64,000 nucleotides of DNA, taken from contig JYFJ02001832.1 in NCBI GenBank assembly GCA_000934665.2, positions 1 through 64,000 of the forward strand, read 5' to 3'. The translations under genes and the position numbers were made by a program. Shown in pieces: positions 7,236-51,800 of the stretch; within the stretch, counting starts at the first letter, position 1; every line of letters starts with the position of its first letter. Under the pieces are notes generated by a model. The model saw only the letters and a program-made list of their open reading frames with translations. It ran no database searches and had not been told where the DNA came from. The DNA comes from Catajapyx aquilonaris. Lineage: Eukaryota.

Positions 7236-8495
7236 TACCTACTCTACTTACTCCTCATGATAGTAGCCTGCTGTATCATACATACATGCTTTGCAGAATT
7301 GTGGTGGGAATCTCGACAACTGAAAAATTAGTAAGTTATATCAGAAAGGACCACTTCAGAATTGTGAATTATTTTAATAAAACACACGCTCAAGTTTGGA
7401 ACTCGTGTTTAAAGCAAGTCCTACGTATTCTTTCATTCATGTTATCAAACTATGAGGCACATTGTGTTAATTAAATTATCAGCCTCATGGCAATGATTAC
7501 GGTACTTGCTGGACAACTTGTAAGACTTGATATCTATTACACAATTTTTACATTTATCTTGAAAGAGAGTCCCACAAGGAAAAAGAATTTCTGCTCTCCA
7601 AGCGACAGGCTTTACTGGAAAGGGTGTTCCAAGTTCCTGCAATTCTAAACATTAATTTTGGTAACTTACAGCAATTTTAGATCAGATTCTGTGTTTTCAA
7701 TTTAGGCAAAATGATCCATAATTTTCATTGTTATGAAATTAAATAGGCCTATTGGCATCACAATAAGTAGGTAGGTAGAAGAGAAAGATTTTCCAGAAAA
7801 GCAACAGTATATTTTTAAATGGTGGGGAATGGAAAATTGGGAATAAGGTGTTTACATGTGAGCGTGCATGTGAGCGATGAAACCAATATTATTGAAGACC
7901 TTTGGGGGAAGAACGATCAAGGTCCACCTTTTGTCAAAAATGAGTTACACATCTCAGAAGATTGTTTCACTAGTAGAGAATTTTATGATGGTTTGGTCGT
8001 GGTTGTGGAATAATAATAATCATAGGTCACTATATGGAAGCCCCCGAAAGTGGGATTTACTATAGAAGCTTATGGGCCTTCGAAATTTAAAATGGGAATT
8101 TCTCAGTTTCACCTCAGGTCACCTTGATCGTTCTTCCCCCAAGGTCTTCAATTGTTTGGGCACATACTTTCCTTATCTTATACATTTGTGCTCCCTACCT
8201 CCCAAAAGGCATGCCAAGAATATGATCACCTTCAACATAATAAATATATTTTTCATCATGATCACTTTCTGATGAGACCCAACCAACAGCAGCGTGTGGT
8301 GATGCCCTCTAACACAGAGTGCTTCATGCGACTGGGAAAACTCAGGGCCCCCCACCTGAAACTAGAAATTCCCCCCAGCAAGCAGTCTCACACAATGACT
8401 TAGCCGCTCTCAGCAATGTCTAGGAGTGGTGGATCCAGCCATTAATATGACATTTTTCTCTCCTGTGTAGTGTTTGAATATTAGAATATAATATA

Positions 8496-9480
8496 AGGTA
8501 AAGTAGGGGAAGTGCACAATCGGGGGAAGTGCATCTCTGGTTGCTAGCTGGCCAGCTGGGGATGTGTGAAAGCTGAAAGGTATTGCTGTGCCATGTGTCG
8601 TCCTACTAGTGAATACTATGGTCTTGTAATCTGGCACAAGAGGGCAGGTTTACCTGCCCTTTTTGTCCAGAAGCACATGCTGTTTCGCGAGTTCTGCACT
8701 GCCTACTCCTGATGTGAGATACCTGCCAGCAACATCTGAGCGAGTTTTTCCGGAAAGTTTCCATCACCCAGTGTCCCTACTACACAGTTGTGGTGGCGTT
8801 CAACAGTATTATATGTATGTACAGTATGAGTGATGGAAGTGGGTAATCATTGAATGTGGCGGGGGGGTATGCACTTCCCCCCGGAAAATGTACGGCTGGG
8901 GCAAGTGCACCTCTGCTGCTTGGGGTAAGTGCACTCATGATGTGAGTTCATTTTCTGTGTGAATGTTACATTTTACACTTACGCTACATTTACTTTACAT
9001 GTTACACTTACTGGCACTAGCTTACTCTGAGCCTTCTGTGTTCCAAAGCAGCAAATGTCAAAATGGGGAGGACTTACTTACTTACTACTTACTTACTTAC
9101 GCAGTTATACGCAATGAAGTTCGTATCTCCTGAACAAATTGAGATATCATCATTCTGTAAATGGCATGTTTTAGCTCTGATTTTGATTATGACGCACTGC
9201 CCCCATCGCAGCAGAAATATAATTGCATGCAGGAATTGGATGGGGGGGATGCACTTACCCCGGGTGCCGGGGGAAGTGCACACCTCATGCATTGTTCCGC
9301 ATGATTGTTGCTGCCTTGGAAGCACTTCGTTATGAACCATTCTCCTTCTAACAGTGTCTTAGTAATGGACAGGAGTAACTGCAGGCAAAATTTCATTCAG
9401 ATACAAGGAACAGGTGGGATGCGATAGATGATTTAAAGTGATCTATTACAAAACAGGGGTGCACTTCCCCCACTTTACCT
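8496..9480. mobile_element. pogo-like non-autonomous DNA transposon
   Basis: TA|AGGTAAAGTAGGGGAAGTGCAC ... GTGCACTTCCCCCACTTTACCT|TA; internal repeats of the GGGGAAGTGCA motif in both orientations. Confidence 0.75.
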
Positions 9481-15523: not shown

Positions 15524-18218
15524 TTAGCCCTCATCTCCCATTCCCCTGTCCTTGGTTTTTCCCTTGTCCTCAGGTACCTCTTTGTTGCTAGAAGCCAATC
15601 CCTTACCACCCACATCCTCTGCCTGCCTCTCAATTTCCAGATCCATGTCATGTTTGAGTCCTCGAATAGCTAAGTCATAGACAACTTCTTCCACTTTTTT
15701 CAAGTCATACTTCAGAGCATCATATCTCTTGCGCAACTGGTCATTTTTGAGGTTCAGAAGATGAAATCCAGAGTTCAGCTCCTTCATAAATTTCAGGATC
15801 TGCAGGGGGCGATCATAATCACCAGCAGTCACACTGTTTACTGCAAAGCGAGACTGAAAAAAAAACATGTCAACACAAGTTTTAAATATTAGAATTGTCA
15901 GATACTTTACCAGCTCTGATGCCAATTGCAGCAACCCATTCAGGTAGTCTTCCAAGTCAAGGTGAAAGTCACCCCGTTCAACAGCAACTAAAAATACCAA
16001 GTAACATATTAATTCAGTGGATTGTCCATAAAATCTGTCACGCTGGTAGAAGATATGGAAGAAGTTCAGGCTGGTGAGAGTTAAATGCCGAAAGGCAAGT
16101 GTATGCCTAATCATATACAGAGTGTTTGTTACTAGTCCAGCCAATGGGTGTCAATGTATTCCTTGAGCCAAAAGAAGTCGAAAATGTAGGGGGGAGAAAT
16201 GTCGAGGGAGAAACCAGTAAAATCACCTTGACCAGAAACATTGGTCAATGGTTGCCGAAGAAGCAGGATATGAGCGTGAAAATTGCGACTGTTGGTATTT
16301 GCAAGGTGACCTCTTTCACAGAAATGATTATCACTGCTCATATCCTGCAACTTCGGCAACCACTGGCCATTGTTTCTGGTCGTCTACCTCATTAACGGTT
16401 GGTACCTCGACATTTCTCCTCCCTACATTTTCGACTTGTTTCGGCCCAAGGAATACGCTGACGCCTGTTGGTTGGACTAGTTAGTAATACCCTGTAGATT
16501 GAACGCAGGCAAGGCAACCCTTTTATGATACATGAACTCTCCATGTTCATATTTTGAAAAGTGCTGGTTAGTAATAAATGTAAAACACATGATGTATCAA
16601 AGGTACATTCACACAACCTTCTTTTTCATAATTTACCTACACTTATCACATACAGGGGTTGGACAGAATAATAGGCCCCCCTGCAAAAACGGGTTGAAAC
16701 TTCGAGACTGTTTCATTCTAAAACTGGAAAAGGTACAAAGATGACTTTTACCTAGTTTTGAAGCTCCGTCGATGTCCATTTGTGGGGACATGCAGGCAAC
16801 GCAAAAATCTCGAGAAGGGGAGAGAAACAAAAGACGAACCCTCCCCCCCAGGCCCCATTTTTGACCCAAGTGTCCCACCCTTTTCATTTGAAAACGAAAA
16901 CAGTTATAAATTATGAACTTTACTGGGTTTTGAAGCTCTATTGATGTCACTCGTGTGGTATAGAGATGTACTAAAATTACTGACAGGAGGCAGGGGGAAA
17001 AATATAAATGACACCCCCCTTCCCCTGCACTAAATCTGAGAAGAGGTTGGACAAAATCATGTACATTAAGTTTGGGTCGAATTTTCGTCCCACTGCTAGT
17101 AACTACTAACTTAGCAGCAGCATATTTGGCACTGGTACTGCTAAGTTAGCATTAACTATAGCAGTGGGACAAAAAATTTCCATTGTTAGCATTAATGCAG
17201 TGCAGGGGAAGGGGGGTGTCGCTTATATTTTTTACCCCGCCCCCTGTCGGTAATTTTGGTCCATCTCTATACCACACAAAGTGAAATTGATAAGACCTTC
17301 AAAACCCAGTCAAGTTCATCTGTAACTGTTTTTGTATTCAAATGAAAAGGGTGGGACACTTTGGTCAAAAATGGGGCCAGGGGGGGTAACGTTCGTCTTT
17401 TGTGTCTCACGCCTCTTGTGATTTTTGCTTCATCTGCATACCTCGACAAATGTACACCAACAGAGTTTCAAAACTAGGGAAAAGTCATCTTTGTACCTTT
17501 TCCAGTTTTCGAATAAAACAGGCGAGATGTTTCAACTTCTTTTTGCAGGGGGCCCTATAATTCTGTACAACCCAATGGTACAACCCCTGAACGTACATGA
17601 ATCCAAAGTGTGCCTATGCACTTCCTGAGGATCAGAAAATGTATTTCACCTTCGGATTCAGGATTTTTAGCCCTATTTTTAGAGCCAAACTTGTTTTTTG
17701 AGTGGGATGTCCCTTTAAGGCTGAGCGCAAATCATGCAATGAAGGTGCAACGTTGCCCCTATTTGTTGCATTGAGACAGGATACGCGCGCAGCTTTCGTA
17801 CAACAATACGTCACATTGCACACCCGACGCATATCATCCAATTTTGATGCGATCTTAGGCGCGGAATTGCAGTACAGTACTCCATAATTTTAGGGAAGGA
17901 ATACCATTCACAGTTCATGAATGAGGTCATTCTCGATCACTGTTTGTGTACTATCCACGCTCCATGGGCCACTGGTACTGGTACAAGGTAACCGGTACGT
18001 CACATACTTTGGTACAGTATTGCCTAGTATTTACTCATTGCCAGCAAGTCACAACATTAGCATGGGTCCCCCTACACTCGTGGGGCCCTCGGGAAACTGG
18101 GCAGCGTGCTCATGAGTTAAGACAGCCCTCCTTCCAACACTGCATCGAAGATTCACCGAGATTCACTCCGACCTGGGCGCCGCCATCTTGGAAATTGCCT
18201 CCGATTGGGGGGGGGGGG

Positions 18219-18265
<47 letters not shown>

Positions 18266-19948
18266 AGAGTGTTTTCAAGCAGTGCTGGAAACCTGCAACA
18301 CCCCTGCGACCTCGGAGGAAAGCGGCGCGCACACCCTGCGCCTGCAACGTCGCTGCAACTTCACATGATTTGCGCTCGGCCTAAGGTGACTACTGCAGGA
18401 ACATCAGTTGCAACATATCATGGCAACCTTATGTCGTGTCCACTTTTAAACCGAGATATACATAATGCCCATGCAGGGTCTTGCCCCACTTCACCTTACT
18501 ATGTGTTTAATAATTTAGCTCACATCCATATTGGTTGAAATACCATGCACTGTTCTGTGTGAAGTTGGCATTCCTGAGCCCACCCAATTTTGGTTGGTAT
18601 GAAGACCCGAACACACACCACCCTCCCTGCACAACTTCCAGAGCTCTCCCTTTCCTCACTCCCTTCCCACCACCTCAGAGTGCAACAGGCCTTGTGGGCA
18701 TACACAACATTTCTTAACATGGGTGAAAGCTTAATTATACAGGGTGGTTGGTCAATGGCGTACAAGCTTCACGTAGCGAGATTCCTTGTGAAAAACCAGC
18801 ATAGGGAAGTAAAGGTCCGATTGCTCTATGATGCGTGGTTATAGCTCACGAGTTCTTCAAAAGCTGGAGCCAAATGGTGACGTCACATCCGCCTGCAAAA
18901 TTCAAACAATACCATATCGCTACTGTATGCAGTGTGTTGCCAGATGTTCCCATACCGCCGTCCCCCACATTCCCACGTGTTTATAAGGTTCAAGATTGTT
19001 GGGTGGGAAGTGGGTGGGAATGTGGGAGATGGCAACATCTGGCAATGCAATGCATACAGTAGCAATACAGTATTGTTTGAATTTTGCGGGCGGAGGTGAC
19101 GTGACGTAACAATTTGGCTCCGACTTTCGGAGGGCTTGTGAGCGATAACCACGCATCATAAAACAATCAGACCTTCACTCCCTTATGCTGGTTTTTCACA
19201 AGGAATCTCGCTATGTGAAGCTTGTGGGCCATTTACTCACCACTCTGTGTATAGTAGTGAACCTTCTCATGATCACAAAATCAGAGAGGACAGCATTGAA
19301 TGCAACATGTGTAAAGTTACTATCAACTTCTACAAGCAACATCATACTTTCTGCTTATTGAAAATCAGTTAAGTGAGGGGAATTTCTATAAGCTTTCCTG
19401 TGGGACCATTCTGTATATTAGACATATGCCCTCTTCCCATGCAAGAATTTACACAGCCAACAGGATCTCCAGACATAAAATAGGAATTATGCCAAAATAA
19501 GGTGCAACTATTACAGCAAAATCATAAATTGGATATTCAGATCAAAAGGGCAAAGAATGACTTTGAACAATGAAGCTAACAAAGTCTAGTGAAAGGGACA
19601 TTTCTGGGCCTATAAACATATCATCCTTTACAGATGCCCACCCGACCAAAAAATAACCACCTTACCTCCCAAAAGATTGCAAACTTGTTCACGAGTGGCC
19701 AAAGTGTCAGTCTCTAAGTATATGGTCAGTGCAGCTAAGAAGACCAGACGCTGGGTGGAAAAGCGCCAGTGATCATGAAAACGGTAAAACTGGTTGGCAG
19801 GAACCTTCAGTTTCAAAGTAGCATAGTGATCTTGAACCTTCTTAAAGGACTGACGAGAACGTTCACATATGCTTGGTACTGAAAAATAAATTACCACAAT
19901 TAAAATATTTAATATCTGGCCCTCCCTGCATTTGGAGACAGGGAGGAA

Positions 19949-20008
<60 letters not shown>

Positions 20009-20861
20009 TATTATTATTATTATTATTATTATTATTTTATGAGGAAGTGCTACAGTGTTATCTGGTGGAGAGGAAAAGATCCTGCATAGATTTCCCAAGG
20101 AGAGAATAACACCCAGCTGATGTGTTTGCAGCTCTGATTACTAACATTGGGTCTTTCCACTTTTGCACTGATGCTAATATTAGGCTGAGTGGACCCACCT
20201 TTTGAAGTGAACCAGGGTAATAACTGCAATCAACCATGATTTTCAATAGGCCAAGGGAACAGGGTGTTTCTTACTAGTAGGTCAACCCGAAGTCAGCATA
20301 TTCCTTATGCCAAATCAAGTCGAAAATGTGTGTGTGTTCCCGTCTGTCATAAGCTCAGAGGACAAAAACCCAGGTATTTACTATAACTGTGGGGACATAC
20401 CCAATCGTGAGGACATTTTCAGGTCCCCACAGCTAAAATCACCTGTTAGGTACTACTTTAGTGGGGACATGGTGGACCATGGTCCCCACAATTAGGGTCA
20501 CAAAAAATCCATTTTTCTCAGCCAAGGTTAGGTAGGTTAGGTTATAGGGTAGGTTATAAGTTAGGTTCTGGTAGGTTAGGTTAGGGTAGGTTACACTAGC
20601 TTAGAAAAGTTGGGTTATCTAAGTCCCTGAGCTTATGGCGCATCAGTCTGTGGGGTGGGGGGGGGGGGGGGGTGTGTGTGTGTGTGCATGTGTGTTGAGT
20701 GTCGAGGTACCAACCATTACCAAGGTAGATGACCAGAAACATTGGCCAGTGCAGTGGTTACCTCTTTCACAAAAGTGATTATCTCATATCCTGCTCCCTA
20801 GGCAACCACTGGCCAATGTCTCTGGTTGTCTATCTCGTTACAGGTTGGTCCCTTGACATAT

Positions 20862-20892
<31 letters not shown>

Positions 20893-23800
20893 ACCCCACC
20901 CCCACGCACACACATTTTTCACTTGTTTTGGAGTACGCTGACTTTGAGTTGACCTTCTAATAAGAAACAACCTGTATGTAAATTCCTTAGGCCCCTGTCC
21001 TGAGACAGACTCCCTCTCTTTCAATAACAATGAAAAGTAACTATGCAAAGTAGCTGCTTAACCCTTTGTTTCCCACTGGATTCCGCACATTTTTGTGGGG
21101 GTATAAAAATTACACCCTAGGTGAAAATCACTGGATCAAAAAAATCCAAGATAATTCTATATGGTTCACCAGTCCCTCTGATGAATTATGAAAACATAAA
21201 GTGTCCGCTTAAAAACTTTTATAAAGGTCCGGTTTAAAAGGATGTAATGTGAGCCACCAGGTGCAAAGAAAATGGCTCAAGTGCCAAGCGGCCACCGCCT
21301 CGAGCTCGGAGCAGTCCGCCCGGCCAATCAGGAGCGAGGAGGCCATTTTCATGGTCGCAATGGCACCGGGGGAGTTTGCCTAACATTCACAGATCATTCA
21401 GATTTTCCCCCGGCGAAAATTAAGTCGCAGAATTTTGGGAATTTTAAAAATGGGTTTCAGCTGCACGTCCACTTACCAGAATATATGTGGCAGGGAATCT
21501 ATTTAAATTCGTGCAGTATTTGTATTCTATGAATGAGACCTTTGGCCTATGACGTCATGCCATTAAAAATATCATGCGAGTGGCGTAAATACCCAGGAAC
21601 ATACACACTACGAACATTACCTCATTTTCGTCAGGGTTGTACCAGTGAATTGTAACAAATTATTTTGTCTTGCGATATTATAATATCACAAGATGGCCGC
21701 GGGAGACAAAGGGTTACTCATTCATTCATTCATTACATCACAGCATTAATCCCATAATAACCTTCTTAGTGCCAAAAATATCTAACTACTAACAAGGGAA
21801 TGACCAAGGGTGGTCACTTCCGATTTGGCTGAAACTTGCATGAGGGGTCAATCACGTGCCATAAACACAGTGGTGAAAGTCTTAAATTCTCATTTTCAGC
21901 AGTTTCCGAGATATGAGCGACAGAAACATCCAAATTTAGAGGTCAGGCGGGAAAGGACAAGTGCAAGGCCCCTATACGTGCGGGCAAAATTCGGATGTTT
22001 CTGTCACTTGCATCTCGGAAATGGCTGAAAACAGCAATTTAGGGCTTTCACCACAGTGTATATAGTACATGATTGACCCCTCATGCAAGTTTCAGCCAAA
22101 TCGGAGGCGACCACCCTTGGTCACAACTTGGTCATTCCCTTGTAAGCATACTTCAAATGGACCACCCTTTATAAATAGTATTTTTGTATAATATACTAGT
22201 GAGACGTTACCCTACAAGCATAATTATTTACATGTCAAAATTGTAGGGGTGAGAAATATCAAAAGACCAACCAATAGAGAGATACATGACCAGACACATT
22301 TTCTTTTCCATAGGCAGACTTGACAACACAGTCATTTCATTGCCTAAAGCCTGTTTTACGAATTCGCTTTTCGCGTTATAAAGTAACTTCATAAGGCAGG
22401 ACGGCAAGCAACGCGCGCGGCAGACCAATTTATCACAAGACAACACACAGCACACAGACGGGTTTTGCTGTCGGAAGAGCGAGCTGCCGGCTTCAAATTC
22501 TCCAGAAGTCGGGCAGCATGCTGTCGTGTTGAGCCTATCGAAAGGATGGTCTTCCAGTCCTGTGACAACCACGCCCTCCTCACCTCCTTTCCTCCTCGTG
22601 CCCCCCACCTTGCTTCTTTTCCCCCTGTTTTTTTCCAGTCCGCCTGGCCGGTAATGTCCCGTCCTTTTGCCCCCCCCCCCTCCCCNTCGCCTCGTATGTG
22701 GTCCAGGACACTGCCCTCACCCGGCTAACCGCCCCAGAGCCCGCCCGACCCCAGGTTGGCCTAGCTCATGTACAGTACCGCTCAGAAAGAATGGTACGCC
22801 TCTACATGGAAATTTGTCACCCTGACTGTCGAGGGCTTCCCCGCAACACATGGGAGGGGGGAGCAGGGGGTGGTAAGGTGGGGAGGACAACCCCCGCCTC
22901 CTCAAGACCAGACCCGATTAATGCCCGCTTGAGAGGTGAAAGCGAGGTCAGGGCATTTTGGATAGCTTTGAAGGGTCATGCATTGAATTGACTAGATTAT
23001 TGCTCAATGCTCGTTGCAGTTATGTCCGCGCCGAACAAATATAATCTTTACAATTATTGATCATCACAAAATCACACCTCAGCCTTCATTCCAAGTGGTA
23101 GGAAAGTGTCACAACACCATCACCATCTCTAGAGGCTGACCATTTGGCATTATAATGGGACCACGAATGGGACCGACATTGTGCAACCAACATGTATCAG
23201 CTCCACTGTCACATTTCGTTGAAGAATAAGTAACACCAGGTTTTGTCCGCCGCCACTTAATGCCACGCATTATTGCATGTCAAACAGCAGACAGGTGAAA
23301 ATGTCTAACTTGTAAAGGTGTCACGTAAGCAAGAGGGGTACTGATGCAGCTTGATCACTGGCGTCGCAATCGTTGTCGCATATCTTTATGATCGTCACGA
23401 CGACCAGTGTAATATTTGCAGAGGCATACGGATATTGTTGTGTCACATGGGTAACACATGGGGCTAGAATGCCTACCACATCAGGCATGAAATACAATGT
23501 GAGTGGCGTAATTTCACCAACTTAACCTATTCACATGAAACATGCCATAATGCGGCCTGGCAATTTTTGGGAAAATTTCGAAAGACCAGAAAGCAGTACG
23601 AAAATAGGAAAACACGTAATTACATTGTAGGCGTGATGTGTACTATATGTTAGATGTTGCTTAACATCAGTGGTTCCCTTTGTTATTATTGGCGACCACA
23701 AAAAATCGTTCCGTGAAATTCACGACCTCCTATAGATGTTCATATTTTGATCCCCCAACATGAAAAGACAGGTAAAAAATGAAAGAAAAATCATTGATAA

Positions 23801-26800
23801 CCATTGTAGAGGATCGGAATTGTTTTGTAACTGGGCCTAATTTACGAGAAATAGCATAATTTTGTGTGGATAAATTTTTGCCCTCCCTCGCGACCCCAAG
23901 TGGGGTCTCGACCCACAGTTTGGGAAGCACTGATTACCATGCATATACGGTTGCTGGTATTATTTAATTCAGATATTGTTCCCCCCAAGAGACCACTGCT
24001 CTATCACGGGGTAAACAAAATAAATATAAATAAATAAATAAATTCAGATATTGACAAGTAGCAGCCAATACGGGCTTTTCAGGATTGAAACGTAATCCGC
24101 GGTCAAGGATAACGCATGGTCAAGCAGCTTTGTATTGCTCGTGGTTTTATAATCACTCCCAAGTAAAATGACACAAGTAACATACAAAATAAATGGGCGC
24201 CATCTATCACATAGGGTGATCCAGAGCATCTAAACTCGGCCCCGTCTTTACTACTGCCTTCAACTTACCAATACAAATCTGTTTAATATCTGCTTCGTTA
24301 TCCTGATTACTTTGCAGATGATTAAATTGGTGAAAATGCTGCTTCACTTTTCTACCGGGGGTAAGCATTTTTGTCAATGGAACTCTTAGGGTGACATCTT
24401 CATTTATTGTGGTGTGCTATTAGAACATTATTTGCTACACTTAATTTTTTTTTTATTATTATTATTATTATTTTTTACGTTACCCCGTGATAAGGCTGAG
24501 CCTTTTTAGGGGGGTGGAATACCACCATTTTACTCCATTTTCATATATTAACTTCATTCACCGGTGCAAGGAGTCAAGGATGTAGGGTAAGGATAGGGAT
24601 TTTTGAGGAGGGAACATAGGGTGCAAGTGCAAGGTCTGTAAAGGGGTCATGTGCTGTTCCCCAGGAGGTTAGGTTGCCAGACACCTCCTTGGTGCAGGTC
24701 AGAGACCCTCCTGACGCAGGTGAAAGGAAAGTTCCCCAGGCGGGGATCGAACCTGGGGCCTTTCACTCAGCAAGCCGAGACGTTACCATCACGGCCACCA
24801 CACCTCCCCCTGCTACACTTAATATATATCTTGAAAGTATCTCGTTTCAATCCTGAGAACGTCAGATTTGCTGCTCCTTGCCAATATCTGAATTAAATAA
24901 TGGCCCCAACCGTATATGCGTGATAAGTAACATTTAACTTACACATCTCCTTACAATGCAATTACGTGTTTTCCTATTTTCGTACCGCTTTCTGGTCTTT
25001 CGAAATTTTCCCAGAAATTGCCAAGCCGCATTAAGCGATGTTTCATGTGAATAGGTTAAGTTGGCGAAATTACGCCCCTCACACTGTATTTCACGCCTGA
25101 TGTGTTAGGTATTCTAGCGCCATGTGTTACCCATGTGACACAACAATATCCGTATGCCGATGCAAATATTACACTGGTCGTCGCTACGATCATGAAGATA
25201 TGCGACAACGATTGCAACGCCAGTGATCAAGCTGCATCAGTACCCCTCTTGCTTACGTGACACCTTTACAAGTGGGACATTTTCACCTGTCCGCTGTTTG
25301 ACGTGCGATAAACTGTGGCATTAAGTTTAGTGGCGGCGGACAAAACCTGGTGTTACTTCTTCTTCAACGAAATGTGACAGTGGAGCTGATACATGTTGGT
25401 TGCACAGTATCGGTCCCATTCGTGCTCCCATTATAATGCCGAATGGTCAGCCTCTAGAGATGGTGACGGTGTTGTGACACTTTCCTGCCGACACAGCTGC
25501 CGAAGGGTTTTGATGTCTGGAGACATGGCTTTTGGCGCCTCAGTGAGCATTGCCATTCATTCAGTCAATTCTCAAGTGTATCTGTTGGGTGCAGCTTGAT
25601 GTCCTCTTTCGGGGGGCGATTTCTGTATGAGTCATTTTCGGTAACGAACCTGAGACATCTGCATGAGTTGGTTCGTTATCGGCAATATCAAAAAATTCCC
25701 GTACGCACCCTATAGGTACCAATGATTTGGAGCATCTCACTTGCAGACCTCCATGGGAGTCATGAAATAAAGCAGTGTGCAAAGATTCAGCCGAATACAA
25801 TAACTTCATGTATTTATTTCGACGGTAACGAACCAACGCATCCACCTTCCACCTCGCGCGCTCCCTCTGATGTCGGCTTCCAGCTCACGACAGCGACTTC
25901 CACAGTAGTCAAGAATCGTGAAAACACGATCGTAAACAATAGAGTCTTAATTCAACTACTTAAGTTGATTGACATAATGTCATCCCAGCCTATGCCACGA
26001 CGATCAACCACTTGCAGGACCAGATCAGCAAGTTAGCATTTCCCTGGATGAACCTGTCTTCTCACAATCATGGCCAGCTGCATGTGGCACTGTCCTGATC
26101 TCGCAACCCAAGTCAGGTCAAAGTGTTCACTACTCCTACTGCTCAACACGGAACATTGCTCTCCAACAACAGAGTGTTTACACACAATGTTGTGTATAGC
26201 GAGGTTTTATGAAAACTTTTCTCATGTCCGATTCAAGAAGTGTACAGTATGTCGTTTAATTCAATGCCACTCAATTTTTCAACCCCGTATTACGACCAGT
26301 TATACGCGAGCCCTCCCATTCCATTTTTTCATTACCAATGTCTTCCTCATTGCAGGTTTTGCCAAATTTTGGCTACGGGTGCGCTAGTTACAAATAATTA
26401 TTTTAGTCTTTGTGGCAAGTAATAACTGTCATCCAACCATTCTTCTTGTAAAAGATGTAGGGCCTATAATTTTTTGAAACAGCTATGCCAAATGGCTCTG
26501 AACCCATGTTCTGCAAACTAACTAAACAGTACTTCCAGTTGTTTTTTCATCCCAATCATGGTCCATGTGAAGTGGCATCCTAACATTTTTTTTTTTACTA
26601 AAACGTGTAGATTTCCTGCATTCATTGGTCAATCATAGTTCATCATTTCCAAGCACACCACTTCACCTACTTTCTCTCCCGCATACCAGAACACTGTTTG
26701 GCAGCTAAGGCTATACTAATGCAAAGCTTGCCCTTACATTTCTTGACACCATCCACCTGATGCATCTCTTGCAGAATGGACAGAATTTCTCTAGAATCCT

Positions 26801-26974
26801 GCTCAATGTCCCGAACCACAAGCCGAATTTCCTGAAAAAAGAATCCCACCCAGTCAACACCACATGATATCACTTGCTATCAAACCATACTTCTCGTGCC
26901 TCCTGATCTGCAGTCATGCTTTCGAGAGCATCTTGAAATAAATCCGACATGTCTGCCGGTGCGTCAAAAACCAT
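15524..26974 (-). CDS. TSN: Translin (C3PO subunit); exons 26974-26891, 26831-26738, 19878-19666, 15987-15911, 15853-15524; 265 aa (257 aa if the ATG at 26950 is used)
   Basis: Motifs DQEAREEIRLVVRDIEQ, QFYRFHDHWRFSTQRLVFLAAL, FHLDLEDYLNGLLQLASELSRFAVNSVTAGDYDRP, NLKNDQLRKRYDALKYDLKKVEEVVYDLAIRGL. GT-AG junctions with phases 0,1,1,0. Confidence 0.96.
16132..16480. mobile_element. Fold-back MITE (CTAGT termini); related copy 20274-20960, fragment about 22228-22300
   Basis: CTAGTCCAGCCAA ... TTGGTTGGACTAG; shared internal motifs GACCAGAAACATTGG and CTCATATCCTGC. Confidence 0.75.
16653..17589. mobile_element. Long fold-back DNA element (~940 bp) in Translin intron 3
   Basis: TA|CAGGGGTTGGACAGAAT ... 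GTACAACCCCTG; ~380-bp inverted arms; central hairpin 17078-17180 also found at 45929-46032. Confidence 0.8.
17632..17714. mobile_element. Solo right end of the Kolobok/T2-like MITE
   Basis: CACCTTCGGATTCAGGATTTTT...TTTTTGAGTGGGATGTCCCT|TTAA. Confidence 0.7.
18740..19247. mobile_element. Tc1/mariner-type palindromic MITE
   Basis: TA|CAGGGTGG ... CCACTCTG; ~240-bp inverted arms with a ~25-bp loop. Confidence 0.8.
19948..20036. repeat. (AAT)n followed directly by (TAT)n microsatellite
   Basis: Read directly; source of the poly-Ile in the ORF track. Confidence 0.95.
20274..20960. mobile_element. CTAGT-type fold-back MITE carrying the nested TTAGG-tract element (20337-20650)
   Basis: CTAGTAGGTCAACCCGAAGTCAGC ... 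GCTGACTTTGAGTTGACCTTCTAA; homologous to 16132-16480. Confidence 0.7.
21062..21713. mobile_element. piggyBac-like MITE (second copy 41740-42570)
   Basis: TTAA|CCCTTTG ... CAAAGGG|TTAC; body aligns with 41740-42570. Confidence 0.8.
21793..22142. mobile_element. Fold-back MITE with CAAGGGAA termini and 3-bp TSD (TAA)
   Basis: TAA|CAAGGGAATGACCAAG ... CTTGGTCATTCCCTTG|TAA. Confidence 0.85.
23668..23932. mobile_element. hAT MITE nested in the left arm
   Basis: CAGTGGTTCCC ... GGGAAGCACTG; degenerate 8-bp TSD CTTAACAT/ATTACCAT; absent from the right arm. Confidence 0.75.
24446..24810 (-). mobile_element. tRNA-derived SINE family A, full length
   Basis: A box TGGCCGTGATGG, B box GGTTCGATCC, (TAA)n/poly-A tail, 13-bp TSD TGCTACACTTAAT. 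Confidence 0.9.
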
Positions 26975-27300: not shown

Positions 27301-27621
27301 AGGGACAAGAGTAAATAATACTAAATTTACTCTTGGTAGGGACAACTGGGGACAACTAGAAAGTGTAAATCTGGTGGATATCGGAGGAAGTGTACCAGGG
27401 ATTACCTGAAAGCTGCCTAAAAGTACCAACCAGGTACGGTCGGTAGACTTACAGCTTTGGACTTGGCACTTGGTTCGCATACACAGGTGAGGTTTGGCAC
27501 TAGAGAGTTAGTGAAGTGTTTCATATTTATATATTAACTATTCCCAAAATATTGGTATTTTTTGCACTTAAAACTTGGGGAAAATCTGTACGCACCATTT
27601 GATGTTCCAACAGCAGGAAGC

Positions 27622-28596
27622 ATGTCGTCTGAAATCATGGATGGGCCAACTCGGCTGTCAAAGAACATCCTAGAGTTGCAGTTTATGAGGAAGAGCAAAC
27701 TGGCAGCGGAGAGGTGGAGAGATGAACAATTAAGGAGACTTCTGTATGGTCATCAAGTAACTGAGGCAATGGAGTTGATTCGCTATGAGAAGCAGGCGAG
27801 TTACACTTTTTTTATGGAGATGAGGCCCAACAGGATGTCTTTTCAAGGTAGGAATCCAGGGTGGCAGACTTCCTGAGGGCCAGTTGTACTGTATTAACTA
27901 CAGAGTTAGCACCCGTTTACATATAGACTTACTCTGTAGTTAACCCTGGAACCGTGCCGTGCCTGAAAGTTACGGCAACCGTGCCGTGGGGTCTTTTCAG
28001 ATCCCATCCATATTTTTATTTTTATTAATTATTCTATAATACTTTTCAATGTATTAACTATATACAATCATTCTTTGAACAATGCCTAAAATGATCGCTA
28101 ATTCAAAATAAACATGCACTTCCTGTTATATACTGTAAAAAAATTGGCAAAAGTTCATTGTAATTATCATTTTAATGCATTTTAATTCCTTGGGGTCCAA
28201 AAAGACCCCACGGCACGGTTCCAGGGTTAACCTTAACTCATATTCCTACAACTGGCCCTACATGGCTGCATCAGGTTTATCATGGGGTATTCAGTAATTA
28301 TTAATTACTCTTATTATTTTCAAGGTATGAATCCAGAGGTGGAGGCAAAAATGAAGCGATATGAAGAAGAGAGACAGAAAAGATTGAAGTTTGGGGAAAA
28401 GAGGGAGGAGACGAGTGAGGAAAAGGAAAAGCGTGCAAGAGAAAAGAGCATTACAGATCTTGAGATGGCCCAAGTGTGGCATCGTGAGAGGAACATAAGG
28501 GGTGGTCGAGGTCGTGGTCGTGGTCGAGGGCGTGGTCGAGGGGGTGGTCGAGGGAGTCGTAATAAAACGTGGTACAGAGGTGGTAATGGAAAGTAA
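27622..28596 (+). CDS. MPHOSPH6: M-phase phosphoprotein 6-like (nuclear exosome cofactor); exons 27622-27847 and 28325-28596; 165 aa
   Basis: RLSKNILELQFMRKSK and RMSFQ-G-MNPEVE match the two conserved MPP6 blocks (LSKxLLxMKFM; GRMSFxGxNPEVE); later SITDLEMA; phase-1 GT-AG intron; AATAAA at 28736. Confidence 0.88.
27877..28258. mobile_element. Harbinger-like MITE in the MPP6 intron containing a nested piggyBac-like MITE (27944-28226)
   Basis: Outer GGGCCAGTTGTA/TACAACTGGCCC; inner TTAA|CCCTGGAACCGTGCCGTG ... CACGGCACGGTTCCAGGG|TTAA. Confidence 0.8.
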
Positions 28597-29416
28597 AATG
28601 ATCACAGTATGTCCTGTGCCAGATAAGTGAAATGATCCACATTAAGACCCACCATTTAAAATTTTGGGTGACACACTTCACCTTATGACAGGGTTTTGCA
28701 AGGTATTTATACAAAACAGGTCAAATCCCGTACTCAATAAACATTGCCAACATAATGGTTTTACTTGAATTTTCCATTTCATCATGAACCAAAGTGACGT
28801 ATCTGTGGTGGGTGATGGTGATGCCATGCTGGTGACTGATCTTCACACACACACCCTGGAGGACAGAGGCAGATGGGTCAGAGATTTAAACTTGGTACTG
28901 CAGTAAAGGGTTTTCAGGTCTTTAAATTTTGATTTGAGGTAAGTGCAGATGGATTTAGATTAGTTGAGTTTAAGAGCACGCTACTTCCTCAGTAATTAGC
29001 AAGTGAGAAAAAAATGTACCAGACAATATACCTTATTGACTTTCAAAGTGGTCTATTGCATAATATTCATCTATGTGGGTGCTCTGAAAAATAATTAAAA
29101 TATGCACGTGGTGCACTTGCCCCGCTATATGGGGTAAAGGCGATTGTGGAATTCTCTCACAGTAATAAATCTTGTTCGGATTGTATACAACTAGCGCCAC
29201 AAAGAGTCAAACTTCCTCTGTCAGTCTGTTTTAACCAAATAAAAATATTCCAAGTAGTTATTACAGGAGGAACTGTTATTCACTGCTCTGTAACAGGTTG
29301 GCTAACAGTACTGGCATTATCTGAAGGGTATAGAAAAACCAAGTGGCTAGCACAGTCCATAATACGAATGTAAGGAATACTTAAAATCCAATGTTATTGA
29401 AGTAATTGAAGTAATT

Positions 29417-30386
29417 GAAGGGGTTAGAACCATAGTGGGCCATGTCCATATTTGGGTTAAATGCAGATTCCGCCATCTATTAGCAGAAGAGGCACTTCTC
29501 TGTCCCTACACGACATGTTGAGGCCATCCTGCCTCTGTCGTGAGATATTCAGGTTGTGCAAATATCACTACTTTCCCTGTAGGGGAATTCATTGAGGGAC
29601 ATACTGGGCCATGTCCCCATGAGCCAATAGGATAGCCCCATTCTGGTCACATGGGCATGCATTCCAACATGGACGCGGACGGTGACAGGACAGCTCGAAA
29701 ACGTGTCAGTTCGTCCCATTTCAGGTGCAAAATACCGTGATTTGCAGATGTTACTGAAATATTTACCACCAAACTGGCATGACTTTTATAACAGCTTGGT
29801 TCATGATGATTAATATTGTGATTATTAAAAGATTTTCCTTGTGCCACCTATGAAAATCTTGTTTCGTTATTAAACCATGCTAGGAACAAGTATACAGATG
29901 GATTATCCAAAAATATGACAATCATTCATAATATTGATAAGAGCAAAAACATTCCCTTCAGTGAAAAAAAGAGAAGTAAGACCTCTGTGGCGGAATGAAA
30001 GTAAGCCTACTGAAACAAGGCAGGCGCACGTAAGACCTTCCCCAATTGATTTAAGCTGTACCAAAGGCCTTACTCAAGCAATTCTCAATTTACTGCTCAT
30101 ATTGATATGTTATTTTCCATTCTAGGTTGTCATTTCTTTCTGTTGAGAACCAAAGTGGTCCATGTCCAAACACTGTTTTTTCCGATCTCATGAATTCAGG
30201 TTATTTTGTGGATGCTACACAAGGTTCTACAACTTGATCAAAATATAATCAGAGGCACATAACTATGACGAATGCAATGATGTATGTATTTTGAAGTAAA
30301 CCTGCCCCAGTGATGTGGGAACTTTAGGCCACAATTTCTCAAAACTCCTCCAAGTGGACATGGCCCACTATGGTTCTAACCCCTTC
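29417..30386. mobile_element. Sola1-like non-autonomous DNA transposon
   Basis: Perfect 32-bp TIR GAAGGGGTTAGAACCATAGTGGGCCATGTCCA flanked by AATT on both sides (AWWT TSD is typical of Sola1). Confidence 0.75.
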
Positions 30387-42680: not shown

Positions 42681-43234
42681 CTGTATTACCTCACTTAAAG
42701 CGGCATGCCAGTGTAGTCAAGGTCAACCAGTTTTTAGAAATGCATGATCTGGTGGCTATACCGGCATGTCGGTCTAAGTGAGGTATGCCGGTATAAGTCG
42801 AGGTTTTAACTTACGTTATCTTTCCTAACTTGATAATTTTTGCCTGATAATCGAAATCCACGTAAAGGCTATATCAAAAAGGCACATTTTCCACCCAGCG
42901 AACAATTGAGCAAAGCAAAGTAATGAATGAGTGTGTTAATCCTTTGTGATGGAGTAGGGGGTTCCCCTCTCAAAGCAGGCTGACGATGGGATTGGTCACA
43001 CTCTATGCACTGTGCAACAGAACTTGCTTATGCTCACAGCCCTGTACACTCCCATTTTTCATCATAACATTATTTTAGAAGGGTACAAGAAGCACTCCCA
43101 CCAGAAAATGACAAGGGTAAAAAGGATGGTAATCTACTGCGGTTTTTGAGGCATTCCGGGCACCCCCGGGTTATACTGCCATGCTGGTAGACCTCGTTTT
43201 ATACCGGAATGCCGCTTTAAGTGAGGTAATACGA
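42681..43234. mobile_element. pogo/Tigger-like MITE
   Basis: GTATTACCTCACTTAAAGCGGCAT ... ATGCCGCTTTAAGTGAGGTAATAC, TA flanks. Confidence 0.75.
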
Positions 43235-45854: not shown

Positions 45855-48800
45855 CCGATTATCTGGGTGCGGATGACCCATGCATCACCAAAATATAAAA
45901 TTTAAAATGAAAGTCCAAAAATATGTATCGAATTTTCGTCCCACTGTTAGATACTAACTTAGCAATATCAGTGCCAACACTGGTAGACCTACTACTAAGT
46001 AAGCAGTAACTAGCAGTGGGGCGAAAATTCCGCCCACACACGCTGTATATACAGGGTGTTCCAGAGTTGACGACTCACTCTTTGAAACGTAATTACTTTC
46101 GAACGGAATAACATATTTATTTAATGTACGTACCAAAACATCAAGGAAATACTAACTTAAGACCTGTTCTCCATGGTATGGTCAACCACCCCCCCTTCCA
46201 CGTCGATGCAGGCCTGCAATCGCAAGGCGACGTTGTCGCACACCTTCCGACAGAAGTCAACAGGAATCGCGTTGAATTCTTGTGTGATTATGTCACGCAG
46301 ATGCTCCAGGGAGCCGATTCGATGGTGGTAATACTGGTGTAAACCTTTTCCTTCAGATAACCCCACCAGGCATCGGACTGCTTTTGATGGAGAACTTTCC
46401 AGTGCATCTCGGATGCGCTGTTTGTTTTCCTCATTCACAACTACTGTTCTCCCTTTGCCGGGTTTCTTTTGATCCAAGACACTTCCAGTTTCATCGAACC
46501 GTTGGTTTATCCTCGCAACAGTTTTTCGGGTAGGAGCCGGTCCACCGAAAAGGTTTGCCATTTGACGGCACACTTCTGTAACATTTTTTGTCACTGAATA
46601 CAGTCGAACACACTGGACACGTTTGAGGTTTCTCTAACGACAGTCTTGCTTCGGCCATTTTTGTTGCAAGACCTGAGCATTTCTTAGTACTGCCACCTAC
46701 ATGGAAGATTTTCGCACCCTCCCTTGATGTTTCGGTACGTACTTTAAATAAATATGTTGTTCCGTTCGAAAGTAATTGCGTTTCAAAGAGTGAGTCGTCA
46801 ACACTGGAACACCCTGTATATCTCGCCAACAAAAAAATATAAGACATTTTCAAGAAGACAAAATAAAAATTTATGGTAAGTTTTATTATTTTAATTCAAC
46901 CCAGCATCATACTCTGTATATAGTAGTGCCTTAAACCTGCGAATAGCTCATTATGTACTATGTCTGGGACCATTTTCAGATTATCCGTGTTTTCCGCTTA
47001 TCCGGCAACTCCCATGCAGTCATTAGCCTGGATAATCGGGAGTACAGTGTATGACTTGGCCATTCTTGACTCTAATGTGGTGGCCAATGAAAATGGTGCA
47101 TGAGCAGATTTTAAAAAGTTATGTTGCCTAAACTGAAGAATTTTATTGTGTGTGGCTTTTTCACACTTTCCTATTACGAAAAACGTTTTTCTGACCACAA
47201 AAAGTTACATTAGGCAGAAAATTTTGCCAATGTCATCATTTCTAGCCTCACACATAAGAAATACTGCTAAAAGACACCAATGACCTTGACTTTCCCAATT
47301 CTGTCATGGAAGACTTCCCCTAGACCTCCATAATTCTTCACCCAAATTTAACTCAACATCACTATTTTTAGTTTTAATACCATTTAACTGTTATTAACTG
47401 TGTAGTTAAGGAGGGACCTGAAGGACTTGTGCTACCCCCTCTCAGGTGGGCCTTTTAAGAGATGCAGTAGGGGGTTGTTTCTTAGCTTTTCAAGGGGTTT
47501 CTTAGTTTTCTCAGTCTGATTGCACATCCCAGGTCAGAGAGCACCACTCGACACTGCTGTTGGTGTGGATTGCATTGAACACAGATCATATAGAGAGAAA
47601 AAAATTATTTAAAAAGTGTCATGTGAACAACACGTAACTCGGCTTCACATCTACACCCTTCTCTGACCCTTCCCTAGGACAGTGAGGTTGCCACATCGTC
47701 GCAGGTGTAATAGTGCATTACAAGGGAACTCTTTCCAAAACTCCTAATCTCACACGGCAGCTACAAGGCACTACCAGGCAATCATCAACTAGAAACTAAT
47801 CAGTAATTATACACTGAATTAAAAGTTGACTTACAGAAAGAGATTGTCCATAACATAATCATAGTCTCGACGACTTCGATCTGGTAGGTAGCATGCACTA
47901 AACACTATGATTGCATTGTGACCACCATCACCCAAATAACCTCCATGTGACAAAACCTGCAAAAAAAATTCCATGTATTATTAGAGCAGGCAAAGCTAGT
48001 GAGAGTTGCTCAAATTAACCTCATGACTAATGGAGCAATACAAAAATATCAATGCAGGGCTAGGTGTATTGAAGAGGGCAAACCTATCACTTTCATGGAC
48101 ACAGATTGGTGCCTTTAAGGCTCACCTTCTTGTAGGGTTCGATAACTTTCATGTCTATGCGTCGCTCAATGCCTGCAATGATGCACTTTCTCCAACTTCT
48201 CTCCTCAGCATATTCTTCAGCAGCAGTGTACTCAGGGATTGGTTCAGGGTGTAACTTTCCAAGACGTTCTGCTATTGATTCTTCCATTTCATCAGGTGTG
48301 TCTATATCAGGAGTTAGAATTCCAACATCCTCATCATCAAAGGTCAAATCAGTAGTTTCTCCATCTAAAGTTGCTTCATCTGCTGTGCTGTGGTGGCCCA
48401 GCATTGAGTGAGAGTCATCTTCGACATCAGGTGCACTGAGGATATCTTCACTAACTAGGATTTTTTTCTTCCTTTGCCGGCCTAAATGACTAGGGCGTTC
48501 TGCAATCAAAGAAAAATAAGTTGCCTCATGTTGGAATGCAAAAGGTATGGTATTTTAGTAAAAGTGGATAATGGGCTCAGTGCAACATCAAAGGGCATAC
48601 TAAAGCAAAATTTTTGAAATCAATGAAATCCATAAAATCAAACTCTTTCAATACTGATTTGAGAACTACTCTAAGTGATATTCACAACAAATACATGCCA
48701 ACACTATAACACACTTATATAGTGGAAAGTGTGAACAAAAGGACCGACCTGGACCAATGCTTGTTGAATTCTGGTTACCTCCATTGTGCATCAGTGCATT

Positions 48801-51800
48801 TGTAGTTGAAAATGGTGGCAAGTTGACAAATCCATTAGGCTTTGGTTGTATCACTTGTTGATCCCTGTCCATAGCTGCTAGTGGAGATGAGTCTCCTGAA
48901 GAAACCCAGCCTTGAAGATTTTGAACATCTAACACTACACCTGTAGCAAGGGATGAAGTAGGCAAAATCTCTCCATTTTCCCTTGGAGAATCTAGGTGAA
49001 CTTCGATCATTGCCGAGTCACTTGCACTTGTAGGTGGTCTTCTCCCCGACTCAGCTGTTACATGCATCACCAAAGAGTCACTGTTGTTACTCATTCCAGA
49101 ATCATCCAGGCACAGCTTTGGTGCAATAACACGTTTAAGATGAGGAGTTGCCAATGTATCATTACTTTCAATGAAGAAGCCTTCAACAACCCTATCGTGA
49201 TTTCGCTTGCGAAACGAGCTGCGACTCTCCAGCCTGCAGTTCTCCGGTAAGGCTTCCTTACCCTGAGATTGTGGAACTTTTACTTGACTTCTAAGAAGCT
49301 GAGACCCACTTATATCATCAAAAGTAGCACTGATCTTAAACTGATCCCCCAACACTTGACCAAAACTCTCATCTAGTTCTCCATTCACGGAAATCTTCTT
49401 TTTTGTCACTGATGTGTGTAGAGGTACATCACTTGAGTTTGAACCAGGGTTAGAATATGACCAGAACAGAACCTTCATCACATCCCTATCAAGAATACTT
49501 GCATATGCCTCACTGTTGCTGACAATCTCTTCAATTTCTGATGGAGTCAAGATGTCTTGCAAGTAGCCTGACAGAGTGTAATTATCTTTGCACTTCTGTT
49601 TATCGAAACACTCATTGATTCTATCCACAGTTTTTTGATCGATGACTAGGTTGTCAGAATTAACACTCAAATTTTCCAAGTCACTGTCTGCAGCATCATT
49701 TGTACAATTAGTGTCAAGGATAGGGCTAGCACCACATTCAAAATGCACCTGGTCTTCTTCTTTATCTGGGGTTGAAGTCTTTTGTGCATTATTGCCCATT
49801 TTTACCTTTCTTGTGAGAACGGGCTCTTCATGAAGAAGGCTTTCAAGACGCTTAATGTGCTCCATGACCACTTCATTGTCATTTATGGAATCACCATGAC
49901 TAACCCCCGACTCTTCCTCCAAGGGCTCTTCCAAAACAACATAATGATCCAAATCTGCTGGATGAGGAACAATCTTTCGCCTGATGCTACCATGCCTGCG
50001 CAGCTCTCCAGACTTGACTATGTTTTCAATACGATCAGCATCAGGCATGTTGATGGTAGTTTGCCTTAGTTTCTGTCTGAAACTCCTCTGTCGCGACATG
50101 ACATTTTGATGTGTTAGTGGCATGTGATAATCTTCATAGTAGTCCTCCAGATCACTATCACCATCAGAAGTTTCCCTTTTCCCCTCTCTTGCTTCACCCT
50201 GAGCATAATCCATATTGTCTACAGGGTTTTGACAGGCTGTGAAAAGGTGCATTCACAACATAAAAGGAACTGAAAATATAGCCTATAATTTTTTAAAAGG
50301 CCAACATGCTTTGCATTCATTGCACATTGATAGATATTGAGGTGCCTTCTATTATTGCAGCTCACTTTTTTTCAAATTATTGACAACACTAACTTTTCAT
50401 CTTCTCACAACTTATTTGCATAACCCAGTGGATCTAAGTGAATCCCAAATTCCTCCTACCACAGCATTATCTTCTGTCAAAAGTCCCTGAGAAGCCATAC
50501 AGCCAGGTTTTTACTAGCAGTCGCAAGCAAATTTCATGAGCATAAATAATAATTGTGGAACAATTTTTTAAAAAAAAACAATGCAATAGTTGCACTGCAA
50601 ATGAGAAAACATTTTAAACAATTTTTAACAACCTCATTGGTAATAATATATTAATCACAGCAAGGAATTTTTTAACCAAATTGGGGCAACTCATTATGTG
50701 AGAACTGGGTAGTTGTAATGTGCAAAAAATGCTAAATGTTGACATTAACTACATAATCAATACAAACTAAATAATAATGCAAGCCAACATTTACAAAACA
50801 CATGCTTTGCATGAATATGGACATAAATCATCTTTGTCACCTACCTTTCTTTAGGCGAACATCTCCCAAACCTGGTGAAAGAATGGCACGATACGTGGAC
50901 GGATCATCATCATCGTCTTCACCATCCTCCATATTACCTGCAAAGCACAAAAACCTTTACTTCAACTTTTACCTTAGATACTTAAGTTGTGCACAGACAT
51001 TTCCAATCTCCAGGTGAAAAGCATGAAGCCCAACCAAGTGTCAGGCAATGCAGTTCATACCTGCATTATCTAATTCCTCTTGTGGCACTGCCATCCCCTG
51101 GGCTCCATAAGAACTTTGTGCCAATAATTTCATTTGCTTGGGACTGCTTGGAAAATCAACTGGAAAAACAGTGACACAAATGTACTCGACTCTCTTTTGA
51201 AATTAAATGCAGGTCAGAGAAATTCTACGTAGAGCAATTCTAGTGAATAAAATCCTTCCAAGTGACAAGTTTATCTCTATGTGGAGAACTTCTCACTGAC
51301 CTGTTTCAGCTTGGTAACTCCCTGAGCTTGGAAGTTCCAATTCCAAGACGCCACCAAAATTCGCACCTGATGTGGACTGACTCCTGTTGACTGGTGACAT
51401 CTGAGGCAAATCATTGGAACTTCTGTTATCTACATTGCTGTCCCAGTTTTCTGCTATCTTATCACGATTGTCAACACTCTGTTCTCTGTTGTCTATGTTG
51501 CCATCCTGATTGTCCAGTGTCCCATTCCTGTCGCTAGTGATGGAATTCACATCCTGAAATGATAAGGTACATAACATGAAAAATTACACCAAGAATTGTT
51601 ACATATGCTTTTCCAAACTTACTATCTGTTTCGGTTAGAGTCTTTCTCACTGCAAGCTTGCTTATGCTGTAACTTTCAGTTCATTTTAAGAACTCACACA
51701 ATTATTTTATATTACAAGGTTGAATGGAAGAAAACCTGAATTTCAATGAATTTTTGAGCAAAATACATTGGGAATAACCCACATGGAACCTTACTGGCAT

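Follow-up and report, generated by a model that had tools for sequence, protein, structure and literature searches.

How new introns arise is still debated, and few cases have a readable footprint. In the window analysed here (64,000 nt of contig JYFJ02001832.1 of Catajapyx aquilonaris), the sole coding intron of the gene MPP6 starts and ends inside the two copies of a direct repeat. Is this a new intron, and if so, by what event was it made? The initial annotation had read the repeat as a duplication that supplied both splice sites, and had named three routes to it: tandem duplication, TSD or staggered-break repair. The MPP6 intron is a clean case, lying in a conserved single-copy gene and being removed exactly in a transcript contig. 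We consider it probable that it is a lineage-specific intron, born in a single insertion of the break-repair type.

The naming of the gene as MPP6 was confirmed with the PF10175 profile. The two coding exons, matching profile positions 2-79 and 74-116, together scored 34.3 bits (cut-off 29.4), each of them alone remaining below the cut-off. The spliced coding sequence had 498 nt and encoded 165 aa, with no internal stop. Against a profile of 17 MPP6 proteins the spliced product reached 67.7 bits, versus 53.4 bits for the unspliced one. MPP6 was a single-copy gene in the 286-Mb assembly, and searches at the DNA, protein and family level turned up no parent or paralogous MPP6 gene in it, these counts being lower bounds. 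The best database matches were damselfly and tick proteins, with 37–38% identity, plus one unnamed protein. Homologues of the first exon were not found among longer proteins (0 of 64 candidates). The MPP6 encoded here (27622-28596) was divergent, with a C-terminal RG-repeat tail replacing the usual basic KFxKP end. The features of the locus are collected in Table 1.

Table 1 Coordinates of MPP6 exons, introns, repeat copies, MITEs and filler, as positions of the window.
Feature	Position	Strand	Details
MPP6 5'UTR exon	27303..27486	+	X5 piece 27303-27482, joint shifted +4
5'UTR intron	27487..27613	+	127 nt, GT..AG; X5 only; internal control that X5 is spliced
First coding exon	27614..27847	+	ATG 27622; ends at base 1 of the SFQG Gly codon (phase 1)
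Intron	27848..28324	+	477 nt, GT..AG, AAG acceptor; X5 joint, absent from X1-X3
Repeat copy 1	27840..27864	+	last 8 nt of exon and first 17 nt of intron
Left filler	27865..27876	+	ends with the outer MITE's left 3-nt target copy TGA
Outer MITE	27877..28258	.	old foldback element, about 107 nt long in full, of which 95 nt remain; 12-nt deletion
Inner MITE	27940..28230	.	283 nt (27944-28226) between two TTAA; younger, high copy
Right filler	28259..28316	+	right target copy TAC at its start; AT-rich; no stop in the MPP6 frame
Repeat copy 2	28317..28342	+	last 8 nt of intron and first 18 nt of last exon
Last exon	28325..28766	+	GMNPEVE onwards, RG-rich tail; stop 28594-28596; AATAAA 28736-28741; X5 end 28766

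Of the five runs that cover MPP6, four were compared, namely the DNA runs X1–X3, all from one sample that is the likely source, and X5, from another sample and study. X5 is available as assembled contigs only and is not on record as RNA. One of its contigs (contig 25, 860 nt) was composed of 27303-27482, 27610-27839 and 28317-28766, with 0 other letters. The two joints skipped 127 nt (cut shifted by +4) and 477 nt (cut shifted by +8), both with GT..AG ends, and a third X5 joint, on the minus strand, corresponded to the first intron of Translin. The DNA runs were unbroken over both intron junctions and had no joint. The X5 contig ended 25 nt past the only AATAAA of the region; position 27303 is the start of this contig and not a mapped start site. 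From these features we infer that X5 is a transcriptome.

Among the 12 registers possible in the exact core of the repeat, GT..AG ends were found in one only, 27847/28325. This is the junction that had been predicted beforehand, and one X5 contig matched it; removal at GT..AG was thus seen in one transcript contig of one run, whose RNA status is deduced. The "exon 1" of the initial annotation turned out to be exon 2 of the transcript, as a 5'UTR intron precedes it. Missing X5 cover inside the coding intron does not speak against retention, as contigs drop rare forms. Read-through into the intron would end at a stop at 27874-27876.

Through the nested MITEs, the intron folds up as a single long hairpin (-159.9 kcal/mol, z -6.69). 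Direct repeats placed at the base of a hairpin give rise to reverse-transcription jumps (PMC8240250, in the portion available). The X5 joint could then be such a jump between the repeats, a 'falsitron', in a disrupted gene having no intron at all. Both the hairpin and the assembled nature of X5 would allow it, but the joint fits a canonical GT..AG intron with a pyrimidine tract and restores the frame of the only MPP6 gene of the genome. Moreover, the joint lies to the left of the mismatch between the repeats, and the joined contig had equal depth over all three exons. We find this explanation scarcely credible. Spliceosomal excision of the MPP6 intron is favoured, indirectly, by the joint and the restored frame.

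The last exon opens with GTATGA (28325-28330), right behind the acceptor AG. This is a second usable donor, ratchet-point-like, with no downstream acceptor known.

The repeat itself was found as initially annotated, at 27840-27864 and 28317-28342. In a local alignment the two copies were identical in 24 of 26 columns, with one mismatch and one gap of 1 nt, and the exact core across the junction was 11 nt (8 before, 3 after). Copy 1 forms the donor AAG|GTAGGA and bears both the mismatch and the gap, while copy 2 supplies the acceptor TTTTCAAG. Five neighbouring introns (four in Translin and the MPP6 5'UTR intron; two with transcript support, three predicted from the open Translin frame) had exact junction repeats of 1, 0, 2, 1 and 4 nt.

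The chance of such a repeat was assessed on every same-strand AG|GT pair 60–3000 nt apart in 463,779 bases (the window and 40 further 10-kb stretches). The ungapped score of the MPP6 pair, 17, was reached by 17 of 33,721 pairs in real sequence, with 11 of these 17 lying in a pair of tandem arrays (L054, L074). After local shuffling, not one of 91,646 pairs scored above 13. Together with the alignment, this test upholds the view that the repeat is a duplication giving both splice sites: the MPP6 junction repeat is a genuine duplication, far above chance.

Isolated local repeats of 17–29 bp numbered eight in 464 kb, the MPP6 one included (~1 per 58 kb), and two shuffles yielded 0 and 0 non-low-complexity repeats of this length. 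Since such repeats occur in the 464 kb sampled and not in the shuffles, the raw material for introns with duplicated ends exists in this genome. Seven other AG|GT-containing local repeat pairs were inspected as candidate new introns, and none appeared intron-like in a recognisable gene.

Most of the intron length came from mobile elements. Two nested MITEs made up 385 of the 477 nt, and both belonged to real repeat families, in agreement with the initial annotation, which had them enlarge the intron. The outer MITE, which we take to be PIF/Harbinger-like from its ends and TWA targets, had decayed target copies (TGA / TAC). Its terminal 13-mer had 87 matches in the genome (control: 1), and TAA or TTA preceded 21 of 28 other matches examined. 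From the family majority it differed at 14 of 94 columns (~15%), the median being 11% in the family (20 copies kept of 26 fetched). Short copies with both ends perfect were not found in the genome, which fits an old family. The inner MITE is presumably piggyBac-like, judged by its hallmarks. Its terminal 18-mer had 332 exact genome matches, versus 0 for the control, one copy (in L087) had 92% identity, and loose ends at 27940 and 28230 were found in many contigs. The nesting order is plain, the inner element having landed in the outer one. Neither MITE was linked to a transposase.

Removal of both MITEs leaves 92 nt, of which 17 + 8 nt are repeat and 67 nt are filler. The right filler holds a pyrimidine-rich stretch and a candidate branch site. 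The filler was unique, its sole match in the genome being itself, and no source was found by genome search or in the flanks, ~2.7 kb to the left and to the right. The sole significant flank match was to an ATT microsatellite. Compared with the exons, the filler had no resemblance as DNA (p = 0.84 and 0.95, 300 shuffles) or as protein (-1.9 bits against the MPP6 profile).

Because this non-repeat remainder is unlike either exon, tandem duplication fits worst among the three routes proposed earlier. A tandem duplication of the Rogers type, in which 93 nt of exon around AG|GT were doubled and the middle was later overwritten, has two points in its favour. The route was proven in vivo for ATP2A1/2 (PMC3265369, as far as the available text goes), and the insert without MITEs, with the gap filled by N, is 93 nt long, made of whole codons and open in frame. 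Such an insert would arise by chance at about 1/3 x 0.20 = 0.07, a post hoc figure to be taken as a hint only. However, the identity has sharp limits, reaching 17 intronic bases in from the left end and 8 in from the right. Some 67 of the 92 non-MITE bases have no relation to the exons, and uniform decay cannot keep 11 of 12 unconstrained bases beside 67 unrelated ones. This makes a Rogers-type origin very unlikely. The combination of repeat and unique filler favours an insertion with a duplicated target over plain tandem duplication.

As for TSDs, the repeat is not the target duplication of either MITE. The MITE ends (27877 and 28258) lie 12 nt and 58 nt away from the repeat, and the targets are 3 and 4 nt long. 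Both MITEs are passengers in the intron, as their ends and short targets lie away from the splice sites and there is just one copy of the terminal filler. The repeat could instead be the long target duplication of a retroelement or another mobile element, the body of which is now reduced to ~67 unrecognisable bases; the intron would still be new. Target duplications of variable length are typical of non-LTR elements, a TTA-rich stretch lies at the filler end beside the repeat, and isolated local repeats are as frequent in this genome as given above. Against this stands the filler, which lacks a second genome copy, on a contig at single-copy depth in three DNA runs, and neither MITE ends at the repeat. 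We regard a retroelement remnant as unlikely.

The ages of the layers can be compared as well. The outer MITE was ~15% diverged, versus one substitution and one gap in the repeat. For 3.5–1.5 expected substitutions, the Poisson chance of one or fewer is 0.14–0.56, and the ages are compatible. The outer MITE may be older than the repeat; the order we infer has it landing after the duplication, and not arriving with the filler. This layered history, an insertion followed by two MITEs, lets relative dating be done.

We looked for the intron position in other animals by scanning metagenome contigs with a pattern made from the 17-protein alignment. The 94 matches gave 15 MPP6 loci, all distant, five of them open throughout (some may be transcripts). 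The intron at the Gly codon was absent in 15/15, the pattern crossing the site, so that only intron-less loci could be found. This shows that the intron-less state at the Gly exists in several animal groups. Four of 12 short database proteins covered the motif and all four crossed the Gly, in a sample biased to intron-less sequences. The gain of a new intron would be the simplest reading and a likely one, made without a tree. The earlier proposal of intron gain thus stood for the duplication supplying the splice sites, and the novelty of the position, judged on 15 distant loci, is likely only.

Alternatively, the position may be old and common to unsampled relatives, the repeat having been formed later by local copying between the junctions. 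There is room for this, as the outgroup search would have missed an intron at the Gly. Still, several distinct animal groups are without the intron, and no simple process would copy across both junctions exactly in register. The MPP6 intron ends in AAG, derived from coding sequence, versus CAG (4) or TAG (1) in the five neighbouring introns. An old position is highly improbable.

The coding introns found in MPP6 of other animals (15 loci) were all absent here, making the sole coding intron the odd one out. A phase-2 intron before the aromatic-IIE segment was found in 10 of the 15 loci. Eight of them, insect-like and closely similar to each other (L037–L040, L042–L045), had this intron, which lies upstream of the Gly, but no intron after NPEIE. 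The two others, L048, matching a fish protein best, and L049, matching a snail protein best, had the upstream phase-2 intron plus a phase-0 intron after NPEIE, the latter 20 nt downstream of the MPP6 intron site described here. The vertebrate-like L048 had three introns after residue 40. These structures suggest that the older coding introns were lost, by cDNA-mediated loss or retroposition. Possibly, the MPP6 at 27622-28596 is a retrocopy that took its parent's place beside the Translin promoter.

The intron of L048 and L049, which the initial annotation did not take into account, opens a further explanation, intron sliding. Here MPP6 would have retained the old animal intron that follows NPE[IV]E, with its splice sites moved 20 nt upstream. 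For this, the last 26–28 exon bases would have been copied to the far end of the intron, with splicing switched to the AG|GT in the copies. As an example of a cause, recombination with cDNA at one end during a failed intron loss could have left the repeat as a surviving molecular intermediate. Several observations would suit sliding. GT stands straight after the NPEIE codons in L048 and L049, and three of the four motif-covering short proteins depart from the family sequence directly behind NPEVE or NSEVE. The clear part of the repeat stops at 28342, just 2 nt before the old junction at 28344, which a second gap lets it reach. The loss of the other coding introns means that cDNA recombination or retroposition acted on MPP6, and the outer MITE appears somewhat older than the repeat. 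On the other hand, the old donor place reads AC and no GT, and no AG lies directly before copy 2. An intron after NPE[IV]E was missing in 13 of the 15 loci, including the eight insect-like ones, and may be long lost. In addition, the repeat end allows other alignments, and its coincidence with the old junction was noticed post hoc. Sliding is quite unlikely, and the failed intron loss as its cause is doubtful to the same degree. If sliding were true, a single mechanism would underlie intron loss, near-intron pairs and 'repeat-flanked gains'.

Returning to the insertion with a duplicated target, the history was probably as follows. A staggered break, or an equivalent event, would have hit the MPP6 coding exon at SFQ-G-MNPEV. 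Its repair would have brought in about 67 nt of filler DNA, flanked on both sides by a copy of about 25 bp. Within the duplicated piece lies TTTTCAAG|GTATGA, and the left copy of the piece would have become the donor, the right copy the pyrimidine run and the AAG acceptor. As the duplicated piece holds the splice motif, the spliceosome would remove exactly the inserted length and leave the protein unchanged. Being in frame and stop-free, the 93-nt insert would also have made the first allele tolerable. The intronic repeat copy would then have decayed by one substitution and one 1-nt loss. Later, an old PIF/Harbinger-like MITE would have inserted into the filler, and a younger piggyBac-like MITE into the first one at TTAA, bringing the intron from about 93 to 477 nt.

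Junction repeats are a feature of other young introns, and reportedly Li et al. described Daphnia pulex neointrons with them in 2009. In a later study, 33 junction repeats of 4–12 bp in D. pulex neointrons were explained by the repair of staggered double-strand breaks (Li et al. 2014, PMC4202315, part of the paper). The MPP6 intron resembles these in having exon-terminal bases repeated at the opposite intron end, GT..AG ends, a filler of untraced source and later lengthening by secondary insertions. Like them, it has an above-background repeat over both splice sites and a filler unlike the exons. It differs by its repeat of 25–26 bp, by its enlargement through two identifiable MITEs, and by being known without an intron-less allele or sister gene. 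Because the repeat is about twice as long as the longest Daphnia one, ordinary end-joining overhangs may not be its cause.

In Drosophila pseudoobscura, the Bap170 intron has an imperfect 16/18 bp repeat at its splice sites, which left tandem duplication and break repair indistinguishable to the authors (Farlow et al. 2010, PMC2809761, in the sections available). It is similar to the MPP6 intron in the long imperfect repeat and the untraced origin of the inner sequence. In Bap170, however, 218 bp were gained, 206 are spliced and four residues were added, whereas excision in MPP6 is exact. The Bap170 gain has a phylogeny and the MPP6 intron has none. The MPP6 repeat exceeds the Daphnia and Drosophila examples compared.

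The Rogers model is represented by introns from tandem duplication in vertebrate ATP2A1 (PMC3265369) and potato RdRp (PMC4974935), on the evidence of the available text. There, as in MPP6, a duplicated AG|GT gives both splice sites and the peptide is unchanged. In contrast, the intron body in these genes is duplicated gene sequence, which in MPP6 holds for only 25 of about 92 non-MITE bases. Introners, as treated in the accessible part of a review (PMC3443670), likewise have mobile elements as most of the intron and a target duplication giving splice sites. Unlike introners, the MPP6 intron has its MITE ends off the splice sites and its terminal filler in single copy; the intron as a whole is not multi-copy.

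Short junction repeats are weak evidence, since about one in four conserved Drosophila introns has flanking repeats of at least 5 bp (PMC3296678, PMC3443670, as excerpted); a repeat of 25 bp is outside that class. A table of the same review counts five unambiguous break-repair intron gains as of 2012 (PMC3443670). Most likely, the MPP6 intron is a well-preserved instance of this already known type of intron gain. The present evidence does not point to a new mechanism. A search of the literature for a link between MPP6 and intron gain found none.

MPP6 lies head to head with Translin, on the minus strand (ATG 26950, window 15524-26950). Because only about 350 nt separate the Translin ATG from the start of the MPP6 transcript contig, a two-way promoter common to both genes is likely. 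Synteny with Translin was found in none of the 15 related MPP6 loci. Translin had five exons and 257 aa with a long acidic/basic tail, its first intron (26832-26890) being skipped in X5.

Further direct repeats were observed around the gene and in the sampled stretches. Just 3' of MPP6, at window positions 29426-30168, there was an isolated imperfect 23-bp repeat without AGGT, its copies 720 nt apart. At 42757-43228, an isolated imperfect 29-bp repeat had its copies 443 nt apart, both ending with AG|GTA; joining them gave no open frame, and it is probably repeat-derived. L068 had a 39-bp repeat with AGGT (7780-8572), 754 nt apart, and here too joining gave no open frame. A medium-copy repeat starts 3' of the MPP6 end (28960-29300), with a DNA depth of up to about 1,400, versus 23–25. 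Further downstream, at 48093-50252 on the minus strand, there was a gene of the BNIP2 family (PF12496), which we assume to be Caytaxin/Prune2-like, with a 528-codon open frame upstream.
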